A stretch of 64,000 nt of DNA, taken from the NCBI GenBank assembly GCA_947085285.1, contig CAMTVZ010000138.1:330-64329 (forward strand), given 5' to 3'. A program made the position numbers and the translations under genes. Position 1 is the first letter of the stretch. Every line of letters begins with the position of its first letter. Shown here piece after piece: positions 6,573 to 64,000 of this stretch. The DNA is from an uncultured Ignavibacteriota bacterium (GTDB lineage Bacteria > Bacteroidota > Ignavibacteria > UBA10030 > BY39). Below the pieces are notes generated by a model. It did not search any database and had not been told where the DNA came from. It was given only the letters and a program-made list of their open reading frames with translations.

Positions 6573-7939
6573 TACACCATATTTAATATTGTTTGATATA
6601 ATTCATTAACACTGTTTACAACTTTTGCTGCTGCGTCGAATGACCTTTGATATTTAATCATATTAGTCATTTCTTCGTCGATTGAAACACCCGATACCGC
6701 CTGCCTCTGGTTTTCCAATTGACTAATGACTAAATCGCTCATCTTTAAATTATTCCCTACAATGTTTATCTGTGAACCCAATCCGCTAACAAGTGAAGCA
6801 TAAAATTGTTTTAACGAAGTTGTACCGCCGTTTAGAATTTTTTCGTTTTCAATTCCGGCTATCGCCAAAGCTATTGCGTTATCACCAGGTGCACCGTCGG
6901 ATGAAGCCGTTATGTTGTTTAGATTATTAAGAATACTGGCTGCAATATCTATATCTGACGAACCGGTCCCGGTAAAGAAATTATTTCCTGTTGATGGAGG
7001 ATTGCCCAATCCATACCCGGAAGAGTGGATTGAATTAACTCTGTTAATTAAATTTGATGCAATCTGGTCGAGTTTGGTCAGAAAATCAGGGACGGTGGTA
7101 TTACGAACTTTTAAAATTCCGCTCAACTCCCCCGAATTAATGTTAACAGAGTTCCCCGTTAAACTGGAAACGATATTCAAACTGTTACCGACACGCTCTG
7201 TGCGAAGTTCAACTGCACCTGCTCGCGAGGCAATTACAACTCCACCAACCGAAACCATAGTTGACCCACGTCCATCCTCAGTAACTTTAATATTTACAAG
7301 CTTGGAGAGCTCCTCAATTTTCAAATCTCTTTGGTCTTTAGCATCGTTTGGCGAAATGTTATCTACCAGTTTGCTTGTAATTTGCAGATCGAGTTGACTG
7401 ATTTCTTTTGTGAGCTGATTAATCCGGCCGAGTTTATGTTCTATTTCGATGTCAGTATCGCTTATCAATTTTTTTAAGCCTTGATCTAATCTTTTGAACG
7501 ACCCTGTTAAATTTACACCTTGTTGAAGCACAATGTTCCTTATGCCAGTGCTGTCGGGATTTTTCGCAAGTTCGTTGAAACTACCAAAGAACTTACTCAT
7601 AGCTGAACTTAAACCAACATCTGTTGGTTCGTTTATAAGAGCTTCGATTTGCGAAAGATACTGCTGCTGTGCTACTAAATCGCCATTAAGCTGGTTATTA
7701 GTTCTGACCTGCTGGTCAATAAATTGATTACGGAGTCTGCCGATATAATCGACGGTAACACCTGTCCCGATTAGGCCGGCTTTTCGTTTTAGGGGCTGCG
7801 ATGCTACTAAATCGGCTCGTTGGCGAGTGTAGCCTGGTGTGTTTACATTAGCAATGTTGTGGCTTGTTACACTCATCGCAAGCCGCTGAGTTATTAACGC
7901 TCGACGAGCGCTCTCGAGTATGTCGGTTAATCCAGCCAT
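6572..7939 (-). CDS. flgK: Flagellar hook-associated protein 1, FlgK.
   Basis: The N-terminus reads LAMSVTSHNIANVNTPGYTRQRADL. Length is 455 aa. A conserved C-terminal helix is present. Confidence 0.85.
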   Translation of the reverse strand: MAGLTDILESARRALITQRLAMSVTSHNIANVNTPGYTRQRADLVASQPLKRKAGLIGTGVTVDYIGRLRNQFIDQQVRTNNQLNGDLVAQQQYLSQIEALINEPTDVGLSSAMSKFFGSFNELAKNPDSTGIRNIVLQQGVNLTGSFKRLDQGLKKLISDTDIEIEHKLGRINQLTKEISQLDLQITSKLVDNISPNDAKDQRDLKIEELSKLVNIKVTEDGRGSTMVSVGGVVIASRAGAVELRTERVGNSLNIVSSLTGNSVNINSGELSGILKVRNTTVPDFLTKLDQIASNLINRVNSIHSSGYGLGNPPSTGNNFFTGTGSSDIDIAASILNNLNNITASSDGAPGDNAIALAIAGIENEKILNGGTTSLKQFYASLVSGLGSQINIVGNNLKMSDLVISQLENQRQAVSGVSIDEEMTNMIKYQRSFDAAAKVVNSVNELYQTILNMV

Positions 7940-55082: not shown

Positions 55083-56681
55083 TTAACATGCCGGTGAGCG
55101 ACCATAGTGATCAGGATTGGTTATATTTGGAACAACTAAATTACCATTAGCATCCCGCAACTCCCGGCGTACTTCAATTCTCTTTCTTCGTCCTGTAAAA
55201 AGTTTTCTGTATCTTCGACCAGTGAAACTTTGGCGATAAATTACACTCCCATCACGCTGTCGCATCCGTTGTATTTCTCCAGCAGACCATGACCAATTAT
55301 CAAAATCAGTTCCACTAGCGTCTTCTTCATTTCCCCAACCTTCTCTATTCCAAGCCTCTTCAAGCTCTGGGAAAATGTTTCCGTCTTCATCAGGTCTTTC
55401 TTCATAATCAATATACCTATGTATAGAAAAGGTTTGTAAATTGCCGAGGGACCAATTCCATTCATCATAACGAGTTCGAAAAGTGTCATCAGAGTTTTCC
55501 CATCCTTCATCGTCCCAAGCATTCTGCAAATCTTGTAGAAAATTATGATTACGCTCTGGTCTATCGGCGTATCCTATATACATAGGAAGTGATTCAGTGT
55601 CATAACGCTTGCGATATTTTCTATCCCTTAACATTGTTCGCCATTGTTCATCTGTGGCAATATCTGGATATTTTTCTTGGAAACGTGCAATACAAGTTGC
55701 TTCATTCGGTTCAATTGTGCCGGGGACGTAGAAATAAAAGAATTCTATAAAATACTCTTGAGCAGTTACGTTCCCATTCCTACTCTCATATGAATACCAT
55801 TGAATATATTTAGGTGCATAAATAGTAGAACGACCCCCAAAAAGATTTCTTATTTCATCGAGTAATTCTTGGCTATTGCCGAGAGAGCATCCACGAATGA
55901 CTATAGTAGATTCATTATCGAGTTGTGTATCATCTGGTGCTACTAACCTTTCATCCTCAGCATTATCTCTAAGCATTTGAGGAGTTACATGGCGTGTTCT
56001 GGAATCTGCACGGAAGAGCTTAATTAACCACTCTGATTCATTACCATGACTTACAATATTCACTTGTCCCCATGTGCCGTATCCTAAACGAGCTGATTCA
56101 GTGTGAAGATATGTAAATATCTCTTCGACGCTTGAACGAGCAAATACCCCATCAGCGTTTATCCTCCAGTAATGGGAGGCGGCAGTAAAATAACCGCGAC
56201 TTCCGGTAATAAACGAAATAATGGGTCTATCTTGAACAAAATTACGCACAAAAGCGAGTGTCGCAGTACGAAAGCTTTTTCGACGCCCATCAATGCGTCC
56301 GTTTACTTCAAGTTGTATCTCAAAGATTCCCTGCTCTCGCTCATTACGAGCACCTGGAATTGGGAGTTCATAGACTGTATCTTCTGGTTCACCATCAATA
56401 TGTATACGTAATATTGGTGCACCTTCTGCGGCTCTTGCGCGACGTGAAATAGCACCAGTAAATTGCCCATCAACAATTTGACCTGTGAATTCTACAATAA
56501 AATCATCGCTACCTCCACCAGATTCGGTTACAGCTTCACTCCCTCTTCCCCAACGATCAACTTCTTTAAGAGTCAAAACAACATCACTTGCACTATCAGG
56601 TGAATCGAAAATAATTGAAAGAGTTTCCGATAAATTGTTGAGAACCCCGGGATAAAGTATAGCGTGAAATTCACTCATCAC
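55083..56681 (-). CDS. Hypothetical 532 aa protein with two tandem W/D/E-rich repeats and a basic C-terminal tail. It is a candidate injected cargo.
   Basis: The repeats are NAWDDEGWENSDDTFRTRYDEWNWSLGNLQ and EAWNREGWGNEEDASGTDFDNWSWSAGEIQ. Its composition is R/D/E/W-rich, unlike the K/I/N-rich neighbours. Its start overlaps the next gene. Confidence 0.5.
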   Translation of the reverse strand: MMSEFHAILYPGVLNNLSETLSIIFDSPDSASDVVLTLKEVDRWGRGSEAVTESGGGSDDFIVEFTGQIVDGQFTGAISRRARAAEGAPILRIHIDGEPEDTVYELPIPGARNEREQGIFEIQLEVNGRIDGRRKSFRTATLAFVRNFVQDRPIISFITGSRGYFTAASHYWRINADGVFARSSVEEIFTYLHTESARLGYGTWGQVNIVSHGNESEWLIKLFRADSRTRHVTPQMLRDNAEDERLVAPDDTQLDNESTIVIRGCSLGNSQELLDEIRNLFGGRSTIYAPKYIQWYSYESRNGNVTAQEYFIEFFYFYVPGTIEPNEATCIARFQEKYPDIATDEQWRTMLRDRKYRKRYDTESLPMYIGYADRPERNHNFLQDLQNAWDDEGWENSDDTFRTRYDEWNWSLGNLQTFSIHRYIDYEERPDEDGNIFPELEEAWNREGWGNEEDASGTDFDNWSWSAGEIQRMRQRDGSVIYRQSFTGRRYRKLFTGRRKRIEVRRELRDANGNLVVPNITNPDHYGRSPAC

Positions 56682-57123
56682 TTACATTCTCCCATCCTTT
56701 CTGATCAATGTCTCGAATCACTATTTCTTTGCCGCTTTCTTCATCGGTGCTAAGCTGGGTTACGTCTTCATAAGATTCTTCTTGAAATAGCAAATAGTCA
56801 GGTATTCTTATAAGACAACGTATAATATGGGTAGGCGTTGATGGGATAACAGTTGAAAAGCTTCCCTCAATATCAAGTCGATAGTCTCCTGGGGGAACAT
56901 TCTGACACTCGATTAAACCATCTCCATCAGTTCTTCCCTCCACAACACAATTGTTAGGGAGATGAATGCGATAAGATTTATTTGCAATGGGAACAGCCCC
57001 CGAATTACTCTTCAATAAAAGCGAAATATGACTTAACTTTGTCCTTAATATCAATGTATTATATGCATCGATATCATTAGTGCTGAGAGAAATATTTACT
57101 TCTGTATTCATACTAATACACAT
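56671..57123 (-). CDS. Hypothetical protein with a carboxypeptidase-regulatory-like (transthyretin-fold) domain.
   Basis: YRIHLPNNCVVEGRTDGDGLIECQNVPPGDYRLDIEG matches the domain. Confidence 0.45.
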   Translation of the reverse strand: MCISMNTEVNISLSTNDIDAYNTLILRTKLSHISLLLKSNSGAVPIANKSYRIHLPNNCVVEGRTDGDGLIECQNVPPGDYRLDIEGSFSTVIPSTPTHIIRCLIRIPDYLLFQEESYEDVTQLSTDEESGKEIVIRDIDQKGWENVSDE

Positions 57124-57132
57124 TTAAAATAA

Positions 57133-57795
57133 CTAACATCCATAAACTTCTTTTAATTTTGAACATGTTTTTTCATCCAATTGACCATTCGGCGTTAATC
57201 CGTTTTTTCTCTGAAATATCTTTATTGCTGCCTCTGTACGTGGACCTTTGATACCATCAATTGAACCACAGCGATATCCTAAATTTGTGAGTCTCGCTTG
57301 CACTCCTGTAATTTCTTCAATTGGATCAAGAGAGCTTATTTTTAATATCCATGTGTAATTATCACCTAACACATTTTGTTTATTCACGGTTAATTTACCT
57401 TCGGTGATATTCGAAGGAGCTTCGTTTTCAAGTAAGCCTTTATCATTTGTCGTACCATCGAAAGTTTCACTGCCTAACTGTAATTTGTACGACACATTTG
57501 CAAGTGGATTCCCATCTTCATCTTTAAGAATTATTCTCAAATATGTGTGTTGATTTTTAAATTTAATTTTTACTTTCTTCCCTGTATCGATGTTTTCGAC
57601 TTTTGATTTTTTATCTGGAATAACTACTTTGTCACCTGGGAAAATTATATTTGGATTTGGCCTCTTATTTTTTAAATCTTTATTATCTGGATGCTCATAA
57701 ATAGTTTTCCAATTTTTAAACTCATATTTTTTTGCAATACTCGCTAAACACTCCCCTTGTTTTACTATGTGTACTTTGCTCATGTATAGCTCCAA
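57133..57795 (-). CDS. LysM plus peptidoglycan-binding (PG_binding_1-like) protein, as found in phage-tail and contractile injection loci (gpX/Afp7-type).
   Basis: The N-terminal LysM reads HIVKQGECLASIAKKYEFKNWKTIYEHPDN...IFPGDKVVIP. The C-terminus reads ITGVQARLTNLGYRCGSIDGIKGPRTEAAIKIFQRKNGLTPNGQLD. Confidence 0.8.
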   Translation of the reverse strand: MELYMSKVHIVKQGECLASIAKKYEFKNWKTIYEHPDNKDLKNKRPNPNIIFPGDKVVIPDKKSKVENIDTGKKVKIKFKNQHTYLRIILKDEDGNPLANVSYKLQLGSETFDGTTNDKGLLENEAPSNITEGKLTVNKQNVLGDNYTWILKISSLDPIEEITGVQARLTNLGYRCGSIDGIKGPRTEAAIKIFQRKNGLTPNGQLDEKTCSKLKEVYGC

Positions 57796-58440
57796 TTATT
57801 TTATTTCCCATTCTCCGGAATCAATTTCCGGAAAAGTAATTTTACAAGTTCCAGGCTCAACACCTTCGAGTTTTATTTTACCTTTTGCATCAACAACACC
57901 TCTTTTTATAGACCCATCGGGCAATTCAATCTCGTACTTTTCACCTATCATCGGTTTTCCATCTTCATCTGTTACATCAACTTCAATCCAATCAGTTTTC
58001 TTTTTTTCTTCTTTCTTAGAAGATTTCTGTTCAGATTTTTTAGGAGGTGGAGATGAGGTTTTTTTCTCGCTTGATTTTATTTCCGGTTGAGGGGGAACAG
58101 CAAACGGCGGCATAATAACAGGTGGTGCACCCGGCATCACTTCACCTATCAAAACAGTTGGACATCCCACTACAATCGTCCCACCGTGTGCACAACTATC
58201 GCCCATTCGCGCAGCAGGTTTTCCACCAATCATCACACCAGTCGAACCTTTTACAATTACATCTGGCGGACCAACACACGTTGCCATATCGCCCATAACA
58301 GCGGCAGGCAAACCACCGATGAGTACATTAGGAACCCCAGGTCCAGTTATAGGACCACCAACATGTGGAATTGGTGGAACGCCCGGTGTTACCATCGGGC
58401 ATACGTGCATATCACTTATACGTGCGGCTGGTTGTCCCAT
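57796..58440 (-). CDS. PAAR-repeat spike-tip protein with a Pro/Lys-rich linker and a C-terminal domain of about 60 aa.
   Basis: Three PAAR-type repeats are present (GQPAARISD, GLPAAVMGD, GKPAARMGD) with the conserved Cys/His pattern. The C-terminal extension makes it 214 aa. Confidence 0.85.
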   Translation of the reverse strand: MGQPAARISDMHVCPMVTPGVPPIPHVGGPITGPGVPNVLIGGLPAAVMGDMATCVGPPDVIVKGSTGVMIGGKPAARMGDSCAHGGTIVVGCPTVLIGEVMPGAPPVIMPPFAVPPQPEIKSSEKKTSSPPPKKSEQKSSKKEEKKKTDWIEVDVTDEDGKPMIGEKYEIELPDGSIKRGVVDAKGKIKLEGVEPGTCKITFPEIDSGEWEIK

Positions 58441-58454
58441 ATTTAGATTTTAGA

Positions 58455-59315
58455 TTAATTTTTTTCACCAAAAAGTGTATCAACATATTCATCATATTCA
58501 CTCTCAACAATACCCAATCGGTCTTTACCTAAAGAAGCGCGTCCCAAAACAAACCCACTGGTTTCTAATAAAATTTGAATTCGTGCGTGAAAATAAAACG
58601 GCTCGGCAAATTCTACAAGCCGGTACAATTTTTTACTTACACCTGCTTCTTCAGCCCAACCTGCTTCTTGAAGTTTTTCGAGTGTTCTTACATTTATCGG
58701 TCCGATTGTGATGTTGTAAAACTTCGGACGCGACTTGAATTTTTTTCCAAGTACAAAATCTTTCCCGATTGTTGAATGATTATCCTTCTTACCTAATTTA
58801 GATTGAAGTTCGTCCGGGATTGGTCGCTCCTGATATTCTAAATCCTTAACAACGACGGGGACAGGAAGCTGAGTTGAACACTCTAACATCGTGCGAACAA
58901 GTGTAGCAATTCCATCGGTATGTCCCCAGGTTTCGTGTGCATGAACATAATTTTTTAAAAATACTTCAGCTTGATCGTCAGTGAGAGATGAGATGAAATC
59001 TATGTACCATTCGGGACATAACGCTGAGGTATATTGGCGAAGATAATCGGGAATATTTTCGTGCAACGTCTCGAAAGTCTGCGATTGCTCGTCTCTATCA
59101 GCAAACAGACGAGGAAAAGATTGCAAAAGCGCATAACGTGAATGCTCCATGCTGTTCAAGCCCGCATCTTGTATGAGCCGTTCAATTATACGCAAAGCCT
59201 TTACGGCATTTGAAGTTCCGACGGATTCATCCTTATCGAGTAGTCCGATTGGCAGAAGGTCTTCAAGCGAAGCAATCTGAAGTGGAATTTCTATTTTTTC
59301 TATCTCATCCATCAT
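58455..59315 (-). CDS. Putative baseplate protein (TssG/gpI/Afp12-like).
   Basis: It is translationally coupled (ATGA) downstream of the TssF/gpJ-like gene. Position and size fit. I have no motif proof. Confidence 0.35.
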   Translation of the reverse strand: MMDEIEKIEIPLQIASLEDLLPIGLLDKDESVGTSNAVKALRIIERLIQDAGLNSMEHSRYALLQSFPRLFADRDEQSQTFETLHENIPDYLRQYTSALCPEWYIDFISSLTDDQAEVFLKNYVHAHETWGHTDGIATLVRTMLECSTQLPVPVVVKDLEYQERPIPDELQSKLGKKDNHSTIGKDFVLGKKFKSRPKFYNITIGPINVRTLEKLQEAGWAEEAGVSKKLYRLVEFAEPFYFHARIQILLETSGFVLGRASLGKDRLGIVESEYDEYVDTLFGEKN

Positions 59316-60823
59316 TCTTCCGCAGAAACAAGTTTTATTCTAATAAAATTACCATTAACTGTTCTGCTCTTTAAATATAACCCAAGCAGTCTTTCAAAGT
59401 AGCTTTTATCGGGTTCAGATAAGAGTGCACCGTCGTTAACTGGGACTGAAATTTCGGTGAACGGAGTTAAAAATCCTTTAACACGCCCGACTTTTTCTTC
59501 GAATGCAATATTGTTTGATTTAACTAAATCGTTTCGATGGCTAAATGGAGGATAACCAACGATAGCAGCGCGTAAATCATCTTTAGTTAGCCAGCGATGG
59601 CGGCTTGCAAGAAGCGACCGGAAATAATTCCAGATGTGTTCTTTATTATTCAGTGCCTCAATCCGATGGGTTGGAGTTAATGACTGTGCACTTTTTACTC
59701 TTTCATCTATTCCTTGATACAGTCCGAAGCTTCTTCCCGATGCAATGTTGATACAATCATCTCCTATATCGTACTGGCAATAGTGTACTTTCACTGTGCC
59801 CGAAGGCGGTGGCGAAAAAGCAAAAACAACTTCGTCCTTATGAATATCGACTGATGTAGTATATTGAAACGGATAACCCGGATCCAGAACTGTAGCAGCA
59901 TTCAAATATTCAATCGGCGGGTCTGAACCGAGGTCTGTAACTGAAGTAATAATTGTTTCCTTTGACTTATGGGCAGTAATCGGAATGTTATACCGAAATT
60001 GATCAACGGGCAGGGCAAGTGCTTCCATCTCTACCATATTCCAGGCTAGGAATGAATTGAGGACAAGCTTCTTTTCCAAATCTTGTGCGAACTCACCGAG
60101 TCCCGGAAAAGGAATCCATATCAAATCATCTTTTGATTTGCTTGATGAAGCCGCGATGAAGATATCGAAAGGAATTTTTATGAAGCGGGAATCATAAGGA
60201 GTAAGAAAGAAATCATCGACGATGTTGTAGTTGCCCGGATATTTAGTTCTAATAACTGACTTTTTATTATTCTCGAGAACTTTAAAACCTGCAGCTTGCG
60301 TAATGCGACAGCGAAGTCGTTCCACTAACAACGGATCAACATCGCCTGTGAATATACTTATTTCACCGTTTTCTATCTCTTGAAGATTAGAAGTGAAAAT
60401 GTTAAAGCCAAGCATCAAGTCGTCGCCATAGCTGTCAACCCGAACATCGTTCGTATTGGCAGGAACAATCCAGGTCGGATACTGAGGAGCGAATAAAACT
60501 TTTGTTCCTTCTTTATCTTGAACATTAAAATAATGAGGTTGCTCCAACCACACAGGCTGTGCGGTTTTAACTTCACGTAAAGTAGATTGCAGAACAACAT
60601 AAGCCGGACCCGGAAACATCTGTCCAAACAAATGACGGCGAAGCACTTCAAACAATCCGTCGGAAACCTGATCGCTACGCTGTGCATAGGTTGATAAAAG
60701 GAGTTGATCCTGTACTTCCCCCTGATACGCTTCAAGAGTTTGTAAGATTGTAGTGAGTATAGGATCTTTTATATCGCCTTTATACTGACTAATAAAACGA
60801 GATTTAAAATCAGTAAACGTCAT
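59312..60823 (-). CDS. Putative baseplate protein (TssF/baseplate-J/gp6-like).
   Basis: A 503 aa protein between the gp25-like gene and the TssG-like gene. This is the conserved order gp25-gp6-gp7 (TssE-F-G). Confidence 0.4.
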   Translation of the reverse strand: MTFTDFKSRFISQYKGDIKDPILTTILQTLEAYQGEVQDQLLLSTYAQRSDQVSDGLFEVLRRHLFGQMFPGPAYVVLQSTLREVKTAQPVWLEQPHYFNVQDKEGTKVLFAPQYPTWIVPANTNDVRVDSYGDDLMLGFNIFTSNLQEIENGEISIFTGDVDPLLVERLRCRITQAAGFKVLENNKKSVIRTKYPGNYNIVDDFFLTPYDSRFIKIPFDIFIAASSSKSKDDLIWIPFPGLGEFAQDLEKKLVLNSFLAWNMVEMEALALPVDQFRYNIPITAHKSKETIITSVTDLGSDPPIEYLNAATVLDPGYPFQYTTSVDIHKDEVVFAFSPPPSGTVKVHYCQYDIGDDCINIASGRSFGLYQGIDERVKSAQSLTPTHRIEALNNKEHIWNYFRSLLASRHRWLTKDDLRAAIVGYPPFSHRNDLVKSNNIAFEEKVGRVKGFLTPFTEISVPVNDGALLSEPDKSYFERLLGLYLKSRTVNGNFIRIKLVSAEE

Positions 60824-61286
60824 GTGTTTCCTCGATAATATTCCAAGGACCTATTGTTCCTGCTTTCAGTCCTTTTTCGCTTCTTGATATTTTAAATTTG
60901 TAAACATATTCTTTATTCTCGGTTCGGAATTTAATTCCATTTTCTTCCCGCTCATCGCCAATCAAGTTCACATCATAGATTTCTGCAATATCTCCAAACC
61001 AGTTATTAACTTCGTTTTTAATAATTTGTTCGAGCGACCTGCGTTTGTCTTCTTCCATAATATCGCAGAATCGGGCGCTCATTCCCATATTGTAGAATTG
61101 AACCCACATAGCACGGATACCGGGAGATGGTAATTTGAGATATTCGCCAGCACCTGATAAAACAAATAATCTAAGTCGCGAGCCGACAATATTCTCTTCA
61201 GTACTTGCCCGTTGGAAAGTACCAATCGGCGATAATGTTAATGGAATATGTAAAACTGCCATGTTAATTAATTTGTACCATTGCAC
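60810..61286 (-). CDS. gp25/TssE-like baseplate wedge protein.
   Basis: TEENIVGSRLRLFVLSGAGEYLKLPSPGIRAMW fits the GPW_gp25 signature (eeNI..lL.T..GER...P.fG). It is 158 aa and directly follows VgrG. Confidence 0.55.
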   Translation of the reverse strand: MQWYKLINMAVLHIPLTLSPIGTFQRASTEENIVGSRLRLFVLSGAGEYLKLPSPGIRAMWVQFYNMGMSARFCDIMEEDKRRSLEQIIKNEVNNWFGDIAEIYDVNLIGDEREENGIKFRTENKEYVYKFKISRSEKGLKAGTIGPWNIIEETHDVY

Positions 61287-63021
61287 CTTTGATTACGTTT
61301 GTAGCTGCTGCCGACGATTCGACTTGAGTACCTTCTACCTTTACAGACATTGAAGATTTAAGTTCTGCTGAAGATGAGCCAGCAAGTGTAAGTTTATTGC
61401 CTGCTGTTGCTTCAATATCTTGTGCATTGACTTCAGTTTTGGAAGTTGCAGAAATTTCGATTTTGTCAGCTTTCATTTCAATTTTATCATCGGCATTTAT
61501 TTTTATCGTTTTTGCATGAACTTCCACTGTGCCGTCGCTCGATTCGATGAAGATTTTTGGACCTTTGTGTTCCATCCGTATAAGGTTCTCGCCGTTCGGC
61601 ATGGTGATCAAGATTTGCTCAGAACCTTTTTTTTCAATAACTCGAATTTCCGAGCCGGAAGATGTTTTTGCTATCAGCACTTCTTCAGTACCATTATCTG
61701 TTTTACAATCGGGTTTGTTTTCGCTGTGGTAGAGTGAGCCGATGACTACAGGAAGCGATGTGTTGCCGTGTTCGCATCCCACCAAAACCTGATCGTATAT
61801 GCGTGGAGTAAAGTGCGAGCCGTGGTCCGAACCGGCAAAAGGTGTTAACACACGAGCCCAAGCATGTGCACTCCCCTCTGTATCCCATAGATAACGAATT
61901 TGTACTCTGCCAATATTTGCTGGGTCTTTATTATCAATTACTTCAGCGGGTTGTAAAAGCCCCATATACTCGCGTTCGTCGGTGGCTAATTTGCGCATCA
62001 CAGAATCTTTGACCGCACCTTTGAATGAGGCGTTATAAACATTACCTTTGAATTCGGCTTCTAATTCCACCACCACAAATTTATCTTTCAAGATTGGATG
62101 TTCAGGAGCTTCGATCACACGACCTATCGTAACCATCGGATGATTTGTAGTCCCTGTTACATTTATATGCAAGCCATTATAAAATGCTTGTTGATGCTTC
62201 ACAAATTTTTCAAACTCACTTTTTTCAGTAATTGGTTCTTTGTAAATTTCGGTTGGCTCTTTGTGTAATTCATTCGATTTTTTGAAAATTTTTGAACCGA
62301 ACGGATGATTTGGGGCAGCATAGCTACCAGAGTTCACTACTAAGTCGGACGATTCAGAGTGTTTCTGATAATCATACGGAACTCCGTGGAACCTTGTATC
62401 GCCTAAAAAACAATTCAACCGAACATTAGAAATATTTTCCAACCCTAACTTTACTTCCGTTGTTCCACTCAATTTGGGTTCATATCGGAATGTTTCGCCG
62501 TCGTGGTAAAAAACACAGCCGTCGTAACGTGCAAGCCGCTTTAAGAATTCATAATCAGTTTCGTCGTACTGATGTAAAAATCGAAACTTTACCCCGTCAG
62601 ATGGTCCAGTTAATGAATTTGCAAATGATTTATTTTTGACGATTGTATTCACCACATCGAAGGCAGACATATTGACAAAGGATTTATGTTTTTCGACGAA
62701 GTTAAGAGAATGATCTTCCGACATCGCTTGAATGATAAGATTACCTGTCTCGAGATGAAGGTTGTGTATGATGCCGATGTATTTTTTGGAGATGCTGTTA
62801 TCCAATTGATCTAATACGGTGAGTTCTAATTTTTCGCCGAGCCATAAGGATACTGCTTTATCAAAAACAGAATTACACTCGGCTTCATCGAATCCGAGGG
62901 CAAGTCGTATTTTACAATGCGAAAAAAGTGATTGCCACATGTTGGCGCTAACGAAACGCAAACCGTGTGGCTTTCCGTTTATTGTAGCATTTACAATTAT
63001 ATTAGTTACTTTAGAAGCCAT
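61264..63021 (-). CDS. vgrG: VgrG-like spike protein (phage gpD/gp27 fused to a gp5 OB-fold), followed by a C-terminal beta-helix-like repeat.
   Basis: QYDETDYEFLKRLARYDGCVFYHDGE is the VgrG/gpD hallmark. AEVIDNKDPANIGRVQIRYLWDTEGSAHAWARVLTPFAGSDHGSHFTPRIYDQVLVGCEHGNTSLPVVIGSLY is the gp5 OB-fold. Confidence 0.9.
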   Translation of the reverse strand: MASKVTNIIVNATINGKPHGLRFVSANMWQSLFSHCKIRLALGFDEAECNSVFDKAVSLWLGEKLELTVLDQLDNSISKKYIGIIHNLHLETGNLIIQAMSEDHSLNFVEKHKSFVNMSAFDVVNTIVKNKSFANSLTGPSDGVKFRFLHQYDETDYEFLKRLARYDGCVFYHDGETFRYEPKLSGTTEVKLGLENISNVRLNCFLGDTRFHGVPYDYQKHSESSDLVVNSGSYAAPNHPFGSKIFKKSNELHKEPTEIYKEPITEKSEFEKFVKHQQAFYNGLHINVTGTTNHPMVTIGRVIEAPEHPILKDKFVVVELEAEFKGNVYNASFKGAVKDSVMRKLATDEREYMGLLQPAEVIDNKDPANIGRVQIRYLWDTEGSAHAWARVLTPFAGSDHGSHFTPRIYDQVLVGCEHGNTSLPVVIGSLYHSENKPDCKTDNGTEEVLIAKTSSGSEIRVIEKKGSEQILITMPNGENLIRMEHKGPKIFIESSDGTVEVHAKTIKINADDKIEMKADKIEISATSKTEVNAQDIEATAGNKLTLAGSSSAELKSSMSVKVEGTQVESSAAATNVIKGAMVQIN

Positions 63022-63319
63022 AAGTCACCTGATTATCTAATTACAAAAAAGTAAGATATTAAGGGGTTGTGTAAAAATTATATATAATGAACTCAACCCC
63101 GCATAGAAAAATCCAATTCCAAGGCTGACCAAAAAGTAAGCAACTTGTCATTGTGTGGAGTCCCGCGAAACGCGGGACGACGAAGCCTGCCCGGGCAGGC
63201 GGGCAATCTCTCAATTCAATTGAAAAACGACACGTTCAGATTGCTTCTCACGACAAAAGTCGGGATCACAATGACTTTTAGTCAGCCCGAACAAATAATT
63301 CAGTCAACAGCCAACCTTT

Positions 63320-63979
63320 TTACTTACTGCCTTCTTTCCAATGCTCAGAATCGGTAGAAACCAGATACATGTTCAATTGGCGAATCGCATTCTTGTATTT
63401 CACATTTATACGAATATCGATAGCCTGATTGTTCACGGAGCCGTCAGGATTGGTAACTACATCAACTCCTTCAACCTTTCCATATTCTAACATCTTAGAA
63501 GGACCGCCGGTATTGTGCATAAGGAATTTCTGAATTGCCGACTGAATCTGGTCACGACTTGACTGCTCGTTTGGAACGAATGTGCGTCCGTTCAGATAAT
63601 GCAGAACAACTTTTGCAATGTACTCATCGCATCGTTTTACGGTGTACTGATCCATTCCTTCATCTCCCTGACCGCTCGCTAAGTATAAAGTATCAACGCC
63701 CCAGAACACAAGACCTTCATAGAAAGCTACGGGGATAAGAGCTTTGTTGAACTTCATCTGTTGACCGCCACGAATATTCCACTTCATTTCTAATGGGGAT
63801 CCATCGGGAGTTGGTATTTTTATTTCGTGCGGTTTATTTGCCTGAGCGATATGGATACCTTCCTTTATATCACCTTTGTATATTTTCCCAGCAAGAATTC
63901 CGGCGGGGTTAATGTACAGGTCGCCAAGTTCCTTTTCGAAGCGATTTGCACGACGAATTCTGAGTGGATTAGCAACCAC
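63320..63979 (-). CDS. Partial gene immediately upstream of vgrG. It is possibly a tube-initiator or sheath-family component. Its 5' end lies beyond the window.
   Basis: The frame stays open to the window edge. The C-terminus reads GVDVVTNPDGSVNNQAIDIRINVKYKNAIRQLNMYL. The call rests on position only. Confidence 0.3.
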   Translation of the reverse strand: MVANPLRIRRANRFEKELGDLYINPAGILAGKIYKGDIKEGIHIAQANKPHEIKIPTPDGSPLEMKWNIRGGQQMKFNKALIPVAFYEGLVFWGVDTLYLASGQGDEGMDQYTVKRCDEYIAKVVLHYLNGRTFVPNEQSSRDQIQSAIQKFLMHNTGGPSKMLEYGKVEGVDVVTNPDGSVNNQAIDIRINVKYKNAIRQLNMYLVSTDSEHWKEGSK

Positions 63980-64000
63980 CGAAATATGTTGCTTTATTGG

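Follow-up and report, generated by a model that had tools for sequence, protein, structure and literature searches.

We analysed a stretch of 64,000 nucleotides from an uncultured Ignavibacteriota bacterium (contig CAMTVZ010000138.1, positions 330 to 64,329 of the forward strand), hereafter called the window, in which the genes of a predicted type VI secretion system (T6SS) lie on the minus strand up to the right-hand edge (Table 1). A first-pass annotation of this DNA had described a contractile injection system between 57133 and 64000. All seven minus-strand open reading frames (ORFs) placed there were present, although the annotation also spoke of eight proteins, and the motifs that it quoted, including VLTPFAGSDHGSHFTPRIYDQVLVGCEHG, EENIVGSRLRLFVLSGAGEYLKLPSPG and three P-A-A-R/V repeats, were all found in the translations. 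The proposed translational coupling was also observed. The vgrG and tssE-like genes are separated by a 1-nt spacer, the tssE-like gene overlaps tssF by 14 nt and tssF overlaps tssG by 4 nt, a gap of 14 nt separates tssG from the PAAR gene, and the latter directly adjoins the LysM gene, a spacing compatible with one coupled transcription unit. The tssE-like ORF starts at an ATG at 61262 or, alternatively, at a GTG that extends it to 158 amino acids (aa) (60810-61286). The ORF at the window edge stays open to base 64000, without an in-frame stop, and is thus truly partial. The system had been taken to end at 57133; judged by its predicted genes, the T6SS locus runs past this point, with conserved parts reaching about 51260.

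Table 1. Genes of the predicted T6SS and the tssC-vgrG spacer, in gene order
Feature	Position in window	Strand	Basis or remark
3' part of tssC, large sheath subunit	63320-64000	minus	C-terminal 226 residues, truncated by window edge
tssC-vgrG spacer	63022-63319	minus	alignment with L002/L003/L011
vgrG (tssI), spike, 585 aa	61264-63021	minus	Pfam
tssE-like (gp25-like) gene, probable baseplate wedge, 150 aa	60810-61262	minus	
tssF (gp6-like baseplate wedge), 503 aa	59312-60823	minus	predicted fold
tssG (baseplate), 286 aa	58455-59315	minus	Pfam T6SS_TssG
PAAR spike tip, 214 aa	57796-58440	minus	PAAR_motif
LysM - middle domain - PG_binding_1 protein, 220 aa	57133-57795	minus	Pfam
Strain-specific gene, candidate adaptor or cargo partner, 150 aa	56671-57123	minus	
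Strain-specific gene, candidate toxin effector, 532 aa	55083-56681	minus	
Conserved H-E-R-x-H protein, 144 aa	54450-54884	minus	directly upstream of pseudokinase gene
Predicted transmembrane Hanks-type pseudokinase with periplasmic PEGA repeats, 837 aa	51861-54374	minus	Pkinase and PEGA
TssQ-like membrane protein, 189 aa	51260-51829	minus	sub-cut-off NCBIfam TssQ_fam
Protein with lipoprotein-like signal and CarboxypepD_reg-like domain, tentative member, 427 aa	49905-51188	minus	

The partial gene at the edge matched the Pfam TssC family PF17541 (48.1 bits, E 1.1e-12). By tblastn, its product aligned at 87% identity to residues 252-477 of a full-length TssC of 477 aa from a related locus (L008; related loci carry L numbers throughout), and a full-length TssC orthologue scored 100.6 bits against PF17541. 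Profile hidden Markov models (HMMs) also matched VgrG, TssG, the PAAR protein and the protein combining LysM and PG_binding_1 domains, in line with the earlier description of the region as the spike and baseplate half of a contractile injection machine. VgrG matched Phage_base_V (1.6e-19) and Phage_GPD (4.2e-10) above the Pfam cut-offs, and the NCBIfam TssI/VgrG model TIGR03361 below its cut-off (1.1e-28). The protein is predicted to consist of a gp27-like hub, a gp5 OB-fold and a C-terminal beta-helix, with no toxin domain. The PAAR protein, which carries the three repeats, exceeded the Pfam cut-off for PAAR_motif (1.1e-23). Its repeats are followed by a Lys/Pro-rich linker and a C-terminal beta-sandwich-like extension of about 70 aa, of which residues 153-203 gave a weak CarboxypepD_reg match (E 0.049). 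In L004, a stand-alone gene beside that of the LysM and peptidoglycan-binding (LysM/PGB) protein encodes an 82-aa counterpart of this C-terminal domain (residues 147-214), at 44% identity.

In the baseplate, TssG was recognised by Pfam T6SS_TssG PF06996 (7.7e-9, 35.7 bits against a cut-off of 24.6) and by NCBIfam TIGR03347 at a score under its cut-off (7.1e-10). The 503-aa protein and the gp25-like protein had no Pfam or NCBIfam match. Thus, among the families named in the first-pass annotation, Phage_GPD, Phage_base_V, PAAR_motif, LysM and PG_binding_1 were recovered, and GPW_gp25 and Baseplate_J were not. We then relied on predicted structure. An AlphaFold2 model of the 503-aa protein (pLDDT 81, pTM 0.76), compared with the PDB by Foldseek, gave as best matches the TssF chains 6n38_H/I (E 2.3e-16 and 1.1e-15, TM 0.50-0.55). 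Next came gp6-like proteins from Streptomyces CIS, PVC and Afp and from phages T4 and P1. The gp6-like chains of extracellular contractile injection systems (eCIS) reached E 1e-9 to 1e-5, and TssF surpassed the best of them by six to seven orders of magnitude. A recent review (2026; PMC13584744) distinguishes four T6SS classes, those of Pseudomonadota (i), Francisella (ii), Bacteroidota (iii) and Amoebophilus (iv), and we used six annotated loci of class iii (T6SSiii) as references, with HMMs built from 2-5 reference sequences each (loci L021-L027). Against T6SSiii TssF, the 503-aa family gave an hhalign P of 2.1e-3, and in a lenient scan 3 of its 46 members showed a weak Pfam T6SS_TssF match (best E 4.5e-4). 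By its modelled fold, the 503-aa protein is confirmed as TssF; of its earlier label, TssF/baseplate-J-like, the TssF/gp6-like part stands and the Baseplate_J part found no Pfam match.

The 150-aa product of the tssE-like gene, labelled earlier as a gp25/TssE-like wedge, remains a probable TssE, with no HMM match to support the label. Lenient scans gave no Pfam match in any member of its family, and the hhalign comparison with T6SSiii TssE was not significant. Moreover, a profile search of 1.84 billion representatives returned only 23 proteins with no bridge to gp25, and Foldseek found nothing with a low-confidence structure model. PDB sequence profile searches with the TssF-like, TssE-like, TssB-like and TssK-like families, with TssC and with the 532-aa protein likewise gave nothing meaningful, TssC having no PDB sequence match. 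None of the core proteins contains a hydrophobic segment.

The half of the system that lies beyond the window was taken from orthologous loci. Those whose proteins are 88-94% identical to the window proteins (L002/L020, L009, L010, L011 and L012) should be fair proxies for it. A search of 5.8 billion clusters returned about 50 homologues of the 503-aa protein, all without Pfam domains and all from metagenome-assembled genomes (MAGs) of 'Bacteroidota', Ignavibacteria or Kapabacteria. Across the loci we observed a constant order: tssK-like, GTPase, clpV, tssB-like, hcp, hcp, tssC (476 aa), vgrG, tssE-like, tssF, tssG, PAAR, variable genes and a kinase-like membrane protein. The sheath, tube and ATPase genes that had been expected upstream are therefore found there in orthologous loci whose proteins are 88-92% identical. 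The first protein of the cluster, TssK-like and 453 aa long, matched NCBIfam TIGR03353 over residues 9-262 under the curated cut-off (E 1.4e-6) and T6SSiii TssK by hhalign (P 2.1e-4). The upstream ATPase (743-744 aa) contains Clp_N, two AAA domains and ClpB_D2-small, and is of the ClpA/B/V-type family; it scored 622 bits with the TssH model TIGR03345, against a curated cut-off of 885, and 691 bits with the ClpB model. The TssB-like protein (176 aa, outside the window) was the top match of the T6SSiii TssB HMM, with a weak score, and gave an hhalign P of 1.8e-4 against T6SSiii TssB. Between its gene and tssC lie genes for two Hcp-like paralogues of 139-140 aa, also outside the window. One of these reached 25.6 bits with Pfam TssD (cut-off 25.8, E 1.2e-5), and Hcp1 weakly matched T4 gp19 (E 0.013).

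The gene beside the tssK-like gene encodes a P-loop protein of 720-740 aa (722 aa in the loci that gave this order) with an invariant Ras-like G domain (GxxxxGK, DxxG and TKxD, for G1, G3 and G4) and a C-terminal coiled coil (for example L008 8500-10674, L009 4137-6305 and L017 19648-21495). The two genes are always paired; most loci have the pair in front of clpV, and L017 has it behind the kinase-like gene. To our knowledge, no GTPase has been reported as a T6SS component. Insertions were seen elsewhere in the cluster. In Kapaibacterium loci (L006 5683-9543, L007 5656-9543), a beta-propeller protein of about 1,290 aa with a C-terminal sorting domain of the type IX secretion system (T9SS) is encoded between vgrG and the tssE-like gene, and in L012 (328-7659) three T9SS-sorted beta-helix proteins are encoded upstream of vgrG, where other loci have the sheath module. 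The baseplate and sheath modules are therefore separable.

Downstream of tssG, three zones could be distinguished: the conserved pair of PAAR and LysM/PGB genes, a variable slot and a conserved distal module. The LysM/PGB protein matched PG_binding_1 (5.3e-14) and, just over the cut-off, LysM (2.7e-4, 21.3 bits). It has no hydrophobic segment, and so neither a signal peptide nor a transmembrane helix. Since it combines two peptidoglycan-binding domains with the lack of a signal peptide, it may be a T6SS substrate acting in the target periplasm, and it is likely a secreted cargo or accessory protein, for which secretion would be the sole route to peptidoglycan. Its gene follows a PAAR gene, or a gene resembling the PAAR C-terminal domain, in L002, L004, L010, L011 and L012. 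In Kapaibacterium-type loci (L007 18671-20224, L014 17153-18625, L018 920-2260), proteins of 450-520 aa with a C-terminal OmpA-like peptidoglycan-binding domain are encoded next to the kinase-like gene or clpV; the window lineage has the LysM/PG_binding_1 protein instead. The OmpA-like domain also matched the long-form TssL OmpA model TIGR03350 (E 1e-10 to 1e-13).

The variable slot encodes proteins of 150 and 532 aa in the window, 772 and 528 aa in L002, L010 and L012, and 345 and 225 aa in L011, and such varying contents among near-identical loci bear the signature of effector exchange. The 150-aa and 532-aa genes, which overlap by 11 nt, had no homologue in the other related loci. Exact-protein look-ups with VgrG and the TssE-like protein retrieved an 8.3-kb Logan contig that is 100% identical and spans vgrG to the 532-aa gene only; the 150-aa gene was found solely in this contig and in the window. 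The 150-aa protein weakly matched a prealbumin-like SpaA domain (E 0.078). The 532-aa protein, with no Pfam, NCBIfam or PDB sequence match and no transmembrane segment, is likeliest a strain-specific toxin and is best treated as a candidate. It contains two tandem W-rich repeats (…AWDDEGWENSDD…YDEWNWSLGNLQ and …AWNREGWGNEEDA…FDNWSWSAGEIQ), preceded by a beta-strand-HG and a beta-strand-GC element (NIVSHGNE … VIRGCSLG) that are reminiscent of a His/Cys dyad, for which there was no database support. Adaptors are encoded in related loci, namely DUF4123 in L004 and a Tla1-like chaperone in L014.

All membrane proteins of the conserved set are encoded in the distal module. Its first gene, for the soluble 144-aa protein, stands directly upstream of the pseudokinase gene in every Ignavibacteriales locus, and the orthologues at the same position in L002, L010, L011 and L012 are 61-76% identical. 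An AHER[RQ]H motif and Cys/His residues are conserved in the alignment, and a weak match to the putative metallopeptidase family DUF6782 was obtained (E 0.065). The protein could be a minimal metallopeptidase, an immunity protein or a regulator. The adjacent kinase-like protein matched Pkinase (1.1e-17) and, in four stretches, PEGA (2.3e-52). It is laid out as a transmembrane helix (residues 3-21), a Hanks-type domain, a second transmembrane helix (385-403) and at least four PEGA repeats. Its gene was found downstream of tssG/PAAR in the loci of Ignavibacteriales, Kapaibacterium and other MAGs.

Compared with PknB, the VAIK Lys is replaced by Arg (VAIR), HRDLKPxN has become IRDLAPGN, DFG is absent and the glycine-rich loop is degenerate. 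All seven orthologues, with Kapaibacterium among them, have lost the beta3 Lys to Arg or Ser, and three lineages have Gln, Glu or Ala in place of the catalytic Asp. Because catalytic residues are altered in the window protein as well as in its orthologues, the protein is best called a pseudokinase on present alignments. It might instead be an active Ser/Thr kinase of the PpkA/TagE type (described in PMC13584744), operating a threonine-phosphorylation switch as a regulator and not as an anchor. The layout of a cytoplasmic Hanks-type domain, a transmembrane helix and a periplasmic domain, linked to a T6SS, is indeed that of PpkA. We consider this improbable given the residues just listed, including the missing catalytic-loop Lys, and no locus was seen to contain an FHA-domain or PP2C phosphatase gene. 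PpkA-like signalling was thus rejected as the principal reading because the catalytic residues are lost, and by analogy a scaffolding role fits the pseudokinase better than a phosphorylation switch would.

The TssQ-like protein matched the NCBIfam model TssQ_fam NF038027 (E 1e-6, 29.2 bits against a cut-off of 65), and the L013 orthologue scored below the cut-off as well (E 5.9e-6). Transmembrane segments at residues 16-34 and 155-173 enclose a helical, TPR-like domain, and the N-terminal helix followed by the helical domain is the same layout as described for TssQ. L010, L012 and L013 have this gene beside that of the pseudokinase, and L011 has two copies of it there. The 427-aa protein has a hydrophobic N-terminus ending in FFGC and a CarboxypepD_reg match under the cut-off (1.2e-5), and is conserved only in L011 (86% identity).

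A TssC sheath subunit with a TssB-like partner, Hcp-like proteins, an ATPase named ClpV, a TssK-like protein, TssF, TssG, VgrG-PAAR and a variable cargo region containing adaptors together identify the machine as a T6SS. Very probably, what the region encodes is one half of a T6SS operon, that of the spike, baseplate and cargo, in an uncultured Ignavibacteriales bacterium; the system is from a deep lineage related to but distinct from T6SSiii. The T6SS here is real and intact, though only partly captured in the window. The first-pass annotation had framed the locus as eCIS/T6SS-like, and only the T6SS half of this framing held, given the TssC-type partial gene (PF17541), the ClpB/ClpV-type ATPase, the Hcp-like tube and the TssK-like protein. 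An eCIS of the Afp, PVC or MAC kind, or a system like T6SSiv, would also encode VgrG, PAAR, gp25-like, gp6-like and LysM proteins, and both the secondary Foldseek matches of TssF and the gp19 match of Hcp1 are compatible with it. We nevertheless regard it as highly unlikely. A TssC-type sheath gene is accompanied by a separate TssB-like gene, the loci also encode TssG and a TssK-like protein, and the top structural match of the 503-aa protein is T6SS TssF. Moreover, the orthologous loci that span the whole cluster contain no phage-type sheath and tube, tape measure, terminator cap, CDC48-like ATPase, gp7-like or tail fibre genes, so that the tail terminator (DUF4255) predicted upstream was not found. 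The eCIS/T6SSiv reading was rejected on this gene content, and the earlier comparison of gene order with Afp/PVC does not apply, since the locus is a T6SS.

Contractile phage tails have homologues of the baseplate and spike proteins, so a prophage tail module or an R-type tailocin was also considered; the gene content of the orthologous loci led us to reject it, and it has next to no probability. As the first-pass annotation had said of the window, there are no capsid, portal, terminase or integrase genes around the locus; the orthologous loci have none either, and tape-measure and lysis genes were likewise absent from the window flank and related loci. Around the locus lie flagellar genes, toxin-antitoxin modules and T9SS cargo. 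The ATPase named ClpV, the TssK-like protein, TssG and the cargo region with PAAR and adaptor genes are features specific to T6SSs.

For the T6SS, we take the mechanism from the established model, the core components being identified by sequence or fold. TssE/F/G/K wedges would assemble around VgrG-PAAR, and the Hcp tube and TssBC sheath would polymerise from this baseplate. Contraction of the sheath would expel Hcp-VgrG-PAAR with bound cargo into a neighbouring cell, after which ClpV would disassemble and recycle the contracted sheath.

The relation of this T6SS to T6SSiii was judged from TssC, gene content and gene order. In a tblastn search of 72,556 plasmids, the sole matches of TssC were Bacteroidota T6SSiii TssC (DUF5458), at 24-28% identity. 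TssC proteins are 40-75% identical within T6SSiii (three classes) and 55-82% within the new clade, against 21-28% between the two, and a neighbour-joining TssC tree showed two clean clades. T6SSiii HMMs for TssN, TssO, TssP, TssR and DUF5457 found no relative in the window or in 20 related loci. The best score of a T6SSiii membrane-complex HMM was E 0.004, for a soluble 528-aa protein against the PKD-containing TssP model. Similarly, PF17555 and PF17561 were not among the precomputed Pfam annotations of neighbouring genes, nor were the TssJ, TssL and TssM families in the loci examined. The abstract of a T6SSiii study (PMC10781749) reports that membrane-complex homologues were not detected outside T6SS loci; tssB-tssC and tssG-tssN-tssK are T6SSiii adjacencies according to this study and the reference loci. 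Both are absent here: two hcp genes stand between the tssB-like gene and tssC, tssG leads into the PAAR gene and cargo, and the pair of tssK-like and GTPase genes stands at the other end of the cluster. Because TssC is divergent and forms a separate clade, TssN/O/P/R were undetected and the gene order is different, we read the system as a probable deep sister lineage of T6SSiii and not as a member.

It could instead be an ordinary Bacteroidota T6SSiii in which TssN/O/P/R are encoded elsewhere or are beyond HMM detection, the kinase-like protein and the GTPase being lineage-specific accessories. We hold this to be unlikely, yet it keeps some weight because only about 10 kb on each side were examined. 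In its favour, TssC matches only the PF17541 model and, by tblastn, only T6SSiii TssC, a TssQ-like protein is present, and TssB and TssG of B. finegoldii likewise lack a Pfam match. The hosts fit too: Ignavibacteria and Kapabacteria lie within Bacteroidota in GTDB, and the NCBI taxonomy has Kapaibacterium in Bacteroidota. Besides the TssC divergence and the missing adjacencies, it has to face the fact that TssE and TssF are recognised by Pfam or the NCBI annotation pipeline PGAP in T6SSiii and not here, and that no TssN or TssP relative occurred within about 10 kb in 11 species.

Several points weigh against our reading of a T6SS distinct from T6SSiii. The absence of TssN/O/P/R covers about 10 kb around the core genes and the 64-kb window, and HMMs frequently fail to recognise TssO, TssQ and TssR in genuine T6SSiii loci as well (PMC10781749). 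The upstream half comes from orthologous loci and not from this genome, whose source contig seems to stop some 770 nt beyond the window, as suggested by a cluster member on a contig of 64,771 nt. Within that half, the ATPase was named ClpV from its position in the locus, its TssH score being both below the cut-off and below its ClpB score, and the TssB, TssK, Hcp and TssQ assignments all stand on sub-threshold scores. TssE is unproven, having neither an HMM match nor a profile bridge, and its structure model is poor. Putative roles are all that is given here to the pseudokinase, GTPase, HExxH and cargo proteins. Finally, all carriers are MAGs, and T6SS activity is predicted from their genes.

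A more speculative step can be considered. The transmembrane pseudokinase together with the TssQ-like protein would provide an envelope anchor, and the GTPase would control T6SS assembly. This could amount to a fifth architectural class of T6SS, in which the phage-like core is kept and a pseudokinase-PEGA anchor docks the TssK-like protein through its cytoplasmic domain, with TssQ-like and peptidoglycan-binding partners and GTPase-governed assembly or positioning, and in which TssJLM and TssNOPR have no part. We offer this only tentatively, as a possibility that is more doubtful than not.

The tssC-vgrG spacer consists of about 100 nt beside vgrG (63022-63120) that are near-identical across the window, L002/L003 and L011, and of a variable remainder. 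The conserved part is a possible internal promoter, or a leader, of the baseplate genes. It holds a GGGGTTG...CAACCCC hairpin and, at 63101-63115, a TGG-N9-TGC with sigma-54-like spacing, a pattern that was not enriched in the window; scans for sigma-70 promoters and terminators performed no better than on shuffled sequence. In the remainder, perfect G+C-rich hairpins differ between genomes: GCCTGCCCGGGCAGGC and GTCCCGCGTTTCGCGGGAC in the window (about 63160-63200), and CCCCTTCTCTTGCCAAGAGAAGGGG in L002 (about 7700-7730) and L011. These hairpins have no T-run and are therefore not classical terminators. An Rfam scan of 56000-64000 gave no match.

On its downstream side, the T6SS locus leads directly into a large flagellar gene cluster with flagellin, FliD, FliF, FliG, FliI and a sigma-54 activator, in agreement with the flagellar neighbourhood noted earlier. 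Nearly all long ORFs of the window are on the minus strand, and the cumulative GC skew declines steadily, which is compatible with a single replichore carrying strongly co-oriented genes.

A scan of 185,579 species, with one genome for each, detected the family in 11, all of them MAGs, and its synteny is also conserved in many metagenome contigs. The carriers are Ignavibacteriales, Ignavibacteriaceae, Kapaibacterium, unclassified Bacteroidota MAGs and two bins labelled 'uncultured Hyphomicrobiales' (L015 and L018). The latter may reflect mis-binning rather than horizontal transfer to Alphaproteobacteria. Full-text literature searches returned no T6SS report for Ignavibacteriota or Kapabacteria, and no literature on this T6SS family was found. 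In the NCBI taxonomy, Ignavibacteriales belong to a separate phylum.

The finding does not open a new category, and mechanistically the window itself holds no surprise. Its interest lies in the divergence of the system, the undetected canonical membrane complex and the conserved pseudokinase and GTPase, which could be tested as candidates for a new module of anchoring or control. A T6SS is hereby documented in Ignavibacteriota, a phylum for which we found no such report. TssE, TssF and TssB escape the Pfam and NCBIfam models used here, and profile surveys would miss the system if they shared this blind spot. As a deep relative of T6SSiii, it should be useful for understanding how membrane complexes were recruited to the phage-derived core, and which core parts are truly indispensable. 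In ecological terms, the locus suggests that flagellated, uncultured Ignavibacteria of sediments and bioreactors practise contact-dependent antagonism.

Among known systems, the eCIS (Afp, PVC, MAC, AlgoCIS) and T6SSiv of Amoebophilus share with this locus the spike (VgrG/Afp8), PAAR, gp25-like and gp6-like proteins and a LysM-domain protein in the cluster. They differ in having the phage-type sheath and tube, tape measure, terminator cap and CDC48-like ATPase, and they lack TssB/TssC, ClpV, TssG and TssK. T6SSi of Pseudomonadota, with TssJLM and PpkA/TagE-Fha-PppA, shares the overall machine and, with TssE, Hcp and ClpV as putative counterparts here, the core parts TssB-TssI, TssK and PAAR, and its PpkA, like the pseudokinase, is a locus-encoded membrane protein with cytoplasmic Hanks-type and periplasmic domains. 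In contrast, TssJ, TssL, TssM and TssA were not found in the present loci, the kinase-like domain lacks catalytic residues, an FHA/PP2C partner was not found, and the TssC matches no T6SSi TssC in the PDB or on proteobacterial plasmids. By analogy only, the pseudokinase recalls YukC/EssB of T7SSb (type VIIb secretion), a bitopic or polytopic membrane protein whose cytoplasmic pseudokinase acts as a platform for protein interactions at the heart of a secretion machine (bioRxiv 10.1101/2025.01.24.634720); that system is an unrelated one of Gram-positives, and the likeness rests on the shared kinase fold. T6SSiii, of the Bacteroides fragilis GA3 and Flavobacterium johnsoniae type (TssB-K and TssNQOPR), has the same TssC family PF17541/DUF5458. 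It also resembles the new system in VgrG, PAAR, TssF, TssG and the ClpV-type, Hcp-like, TssK-like and TssQ-like proteins, in the lack of TssJ/L/M in the loci examined, and in a host from the Bacteroidota/Ignavibacteriota branch of the Fibrobacteres-Chlorobi-Bacteroidetes (FCB) group. The present system differs from T6SSiii in its TssC, at 21-28% identity, in TssE, TssF and TssB that are invisible to curated models, in TssN/O/P/R undetectable in the loci, in gene order, and in its extra conserved genes for a Ras-like GTPase, a predicted transmembrane pseudokinase with PEGA repeats and a small HExxH protein.

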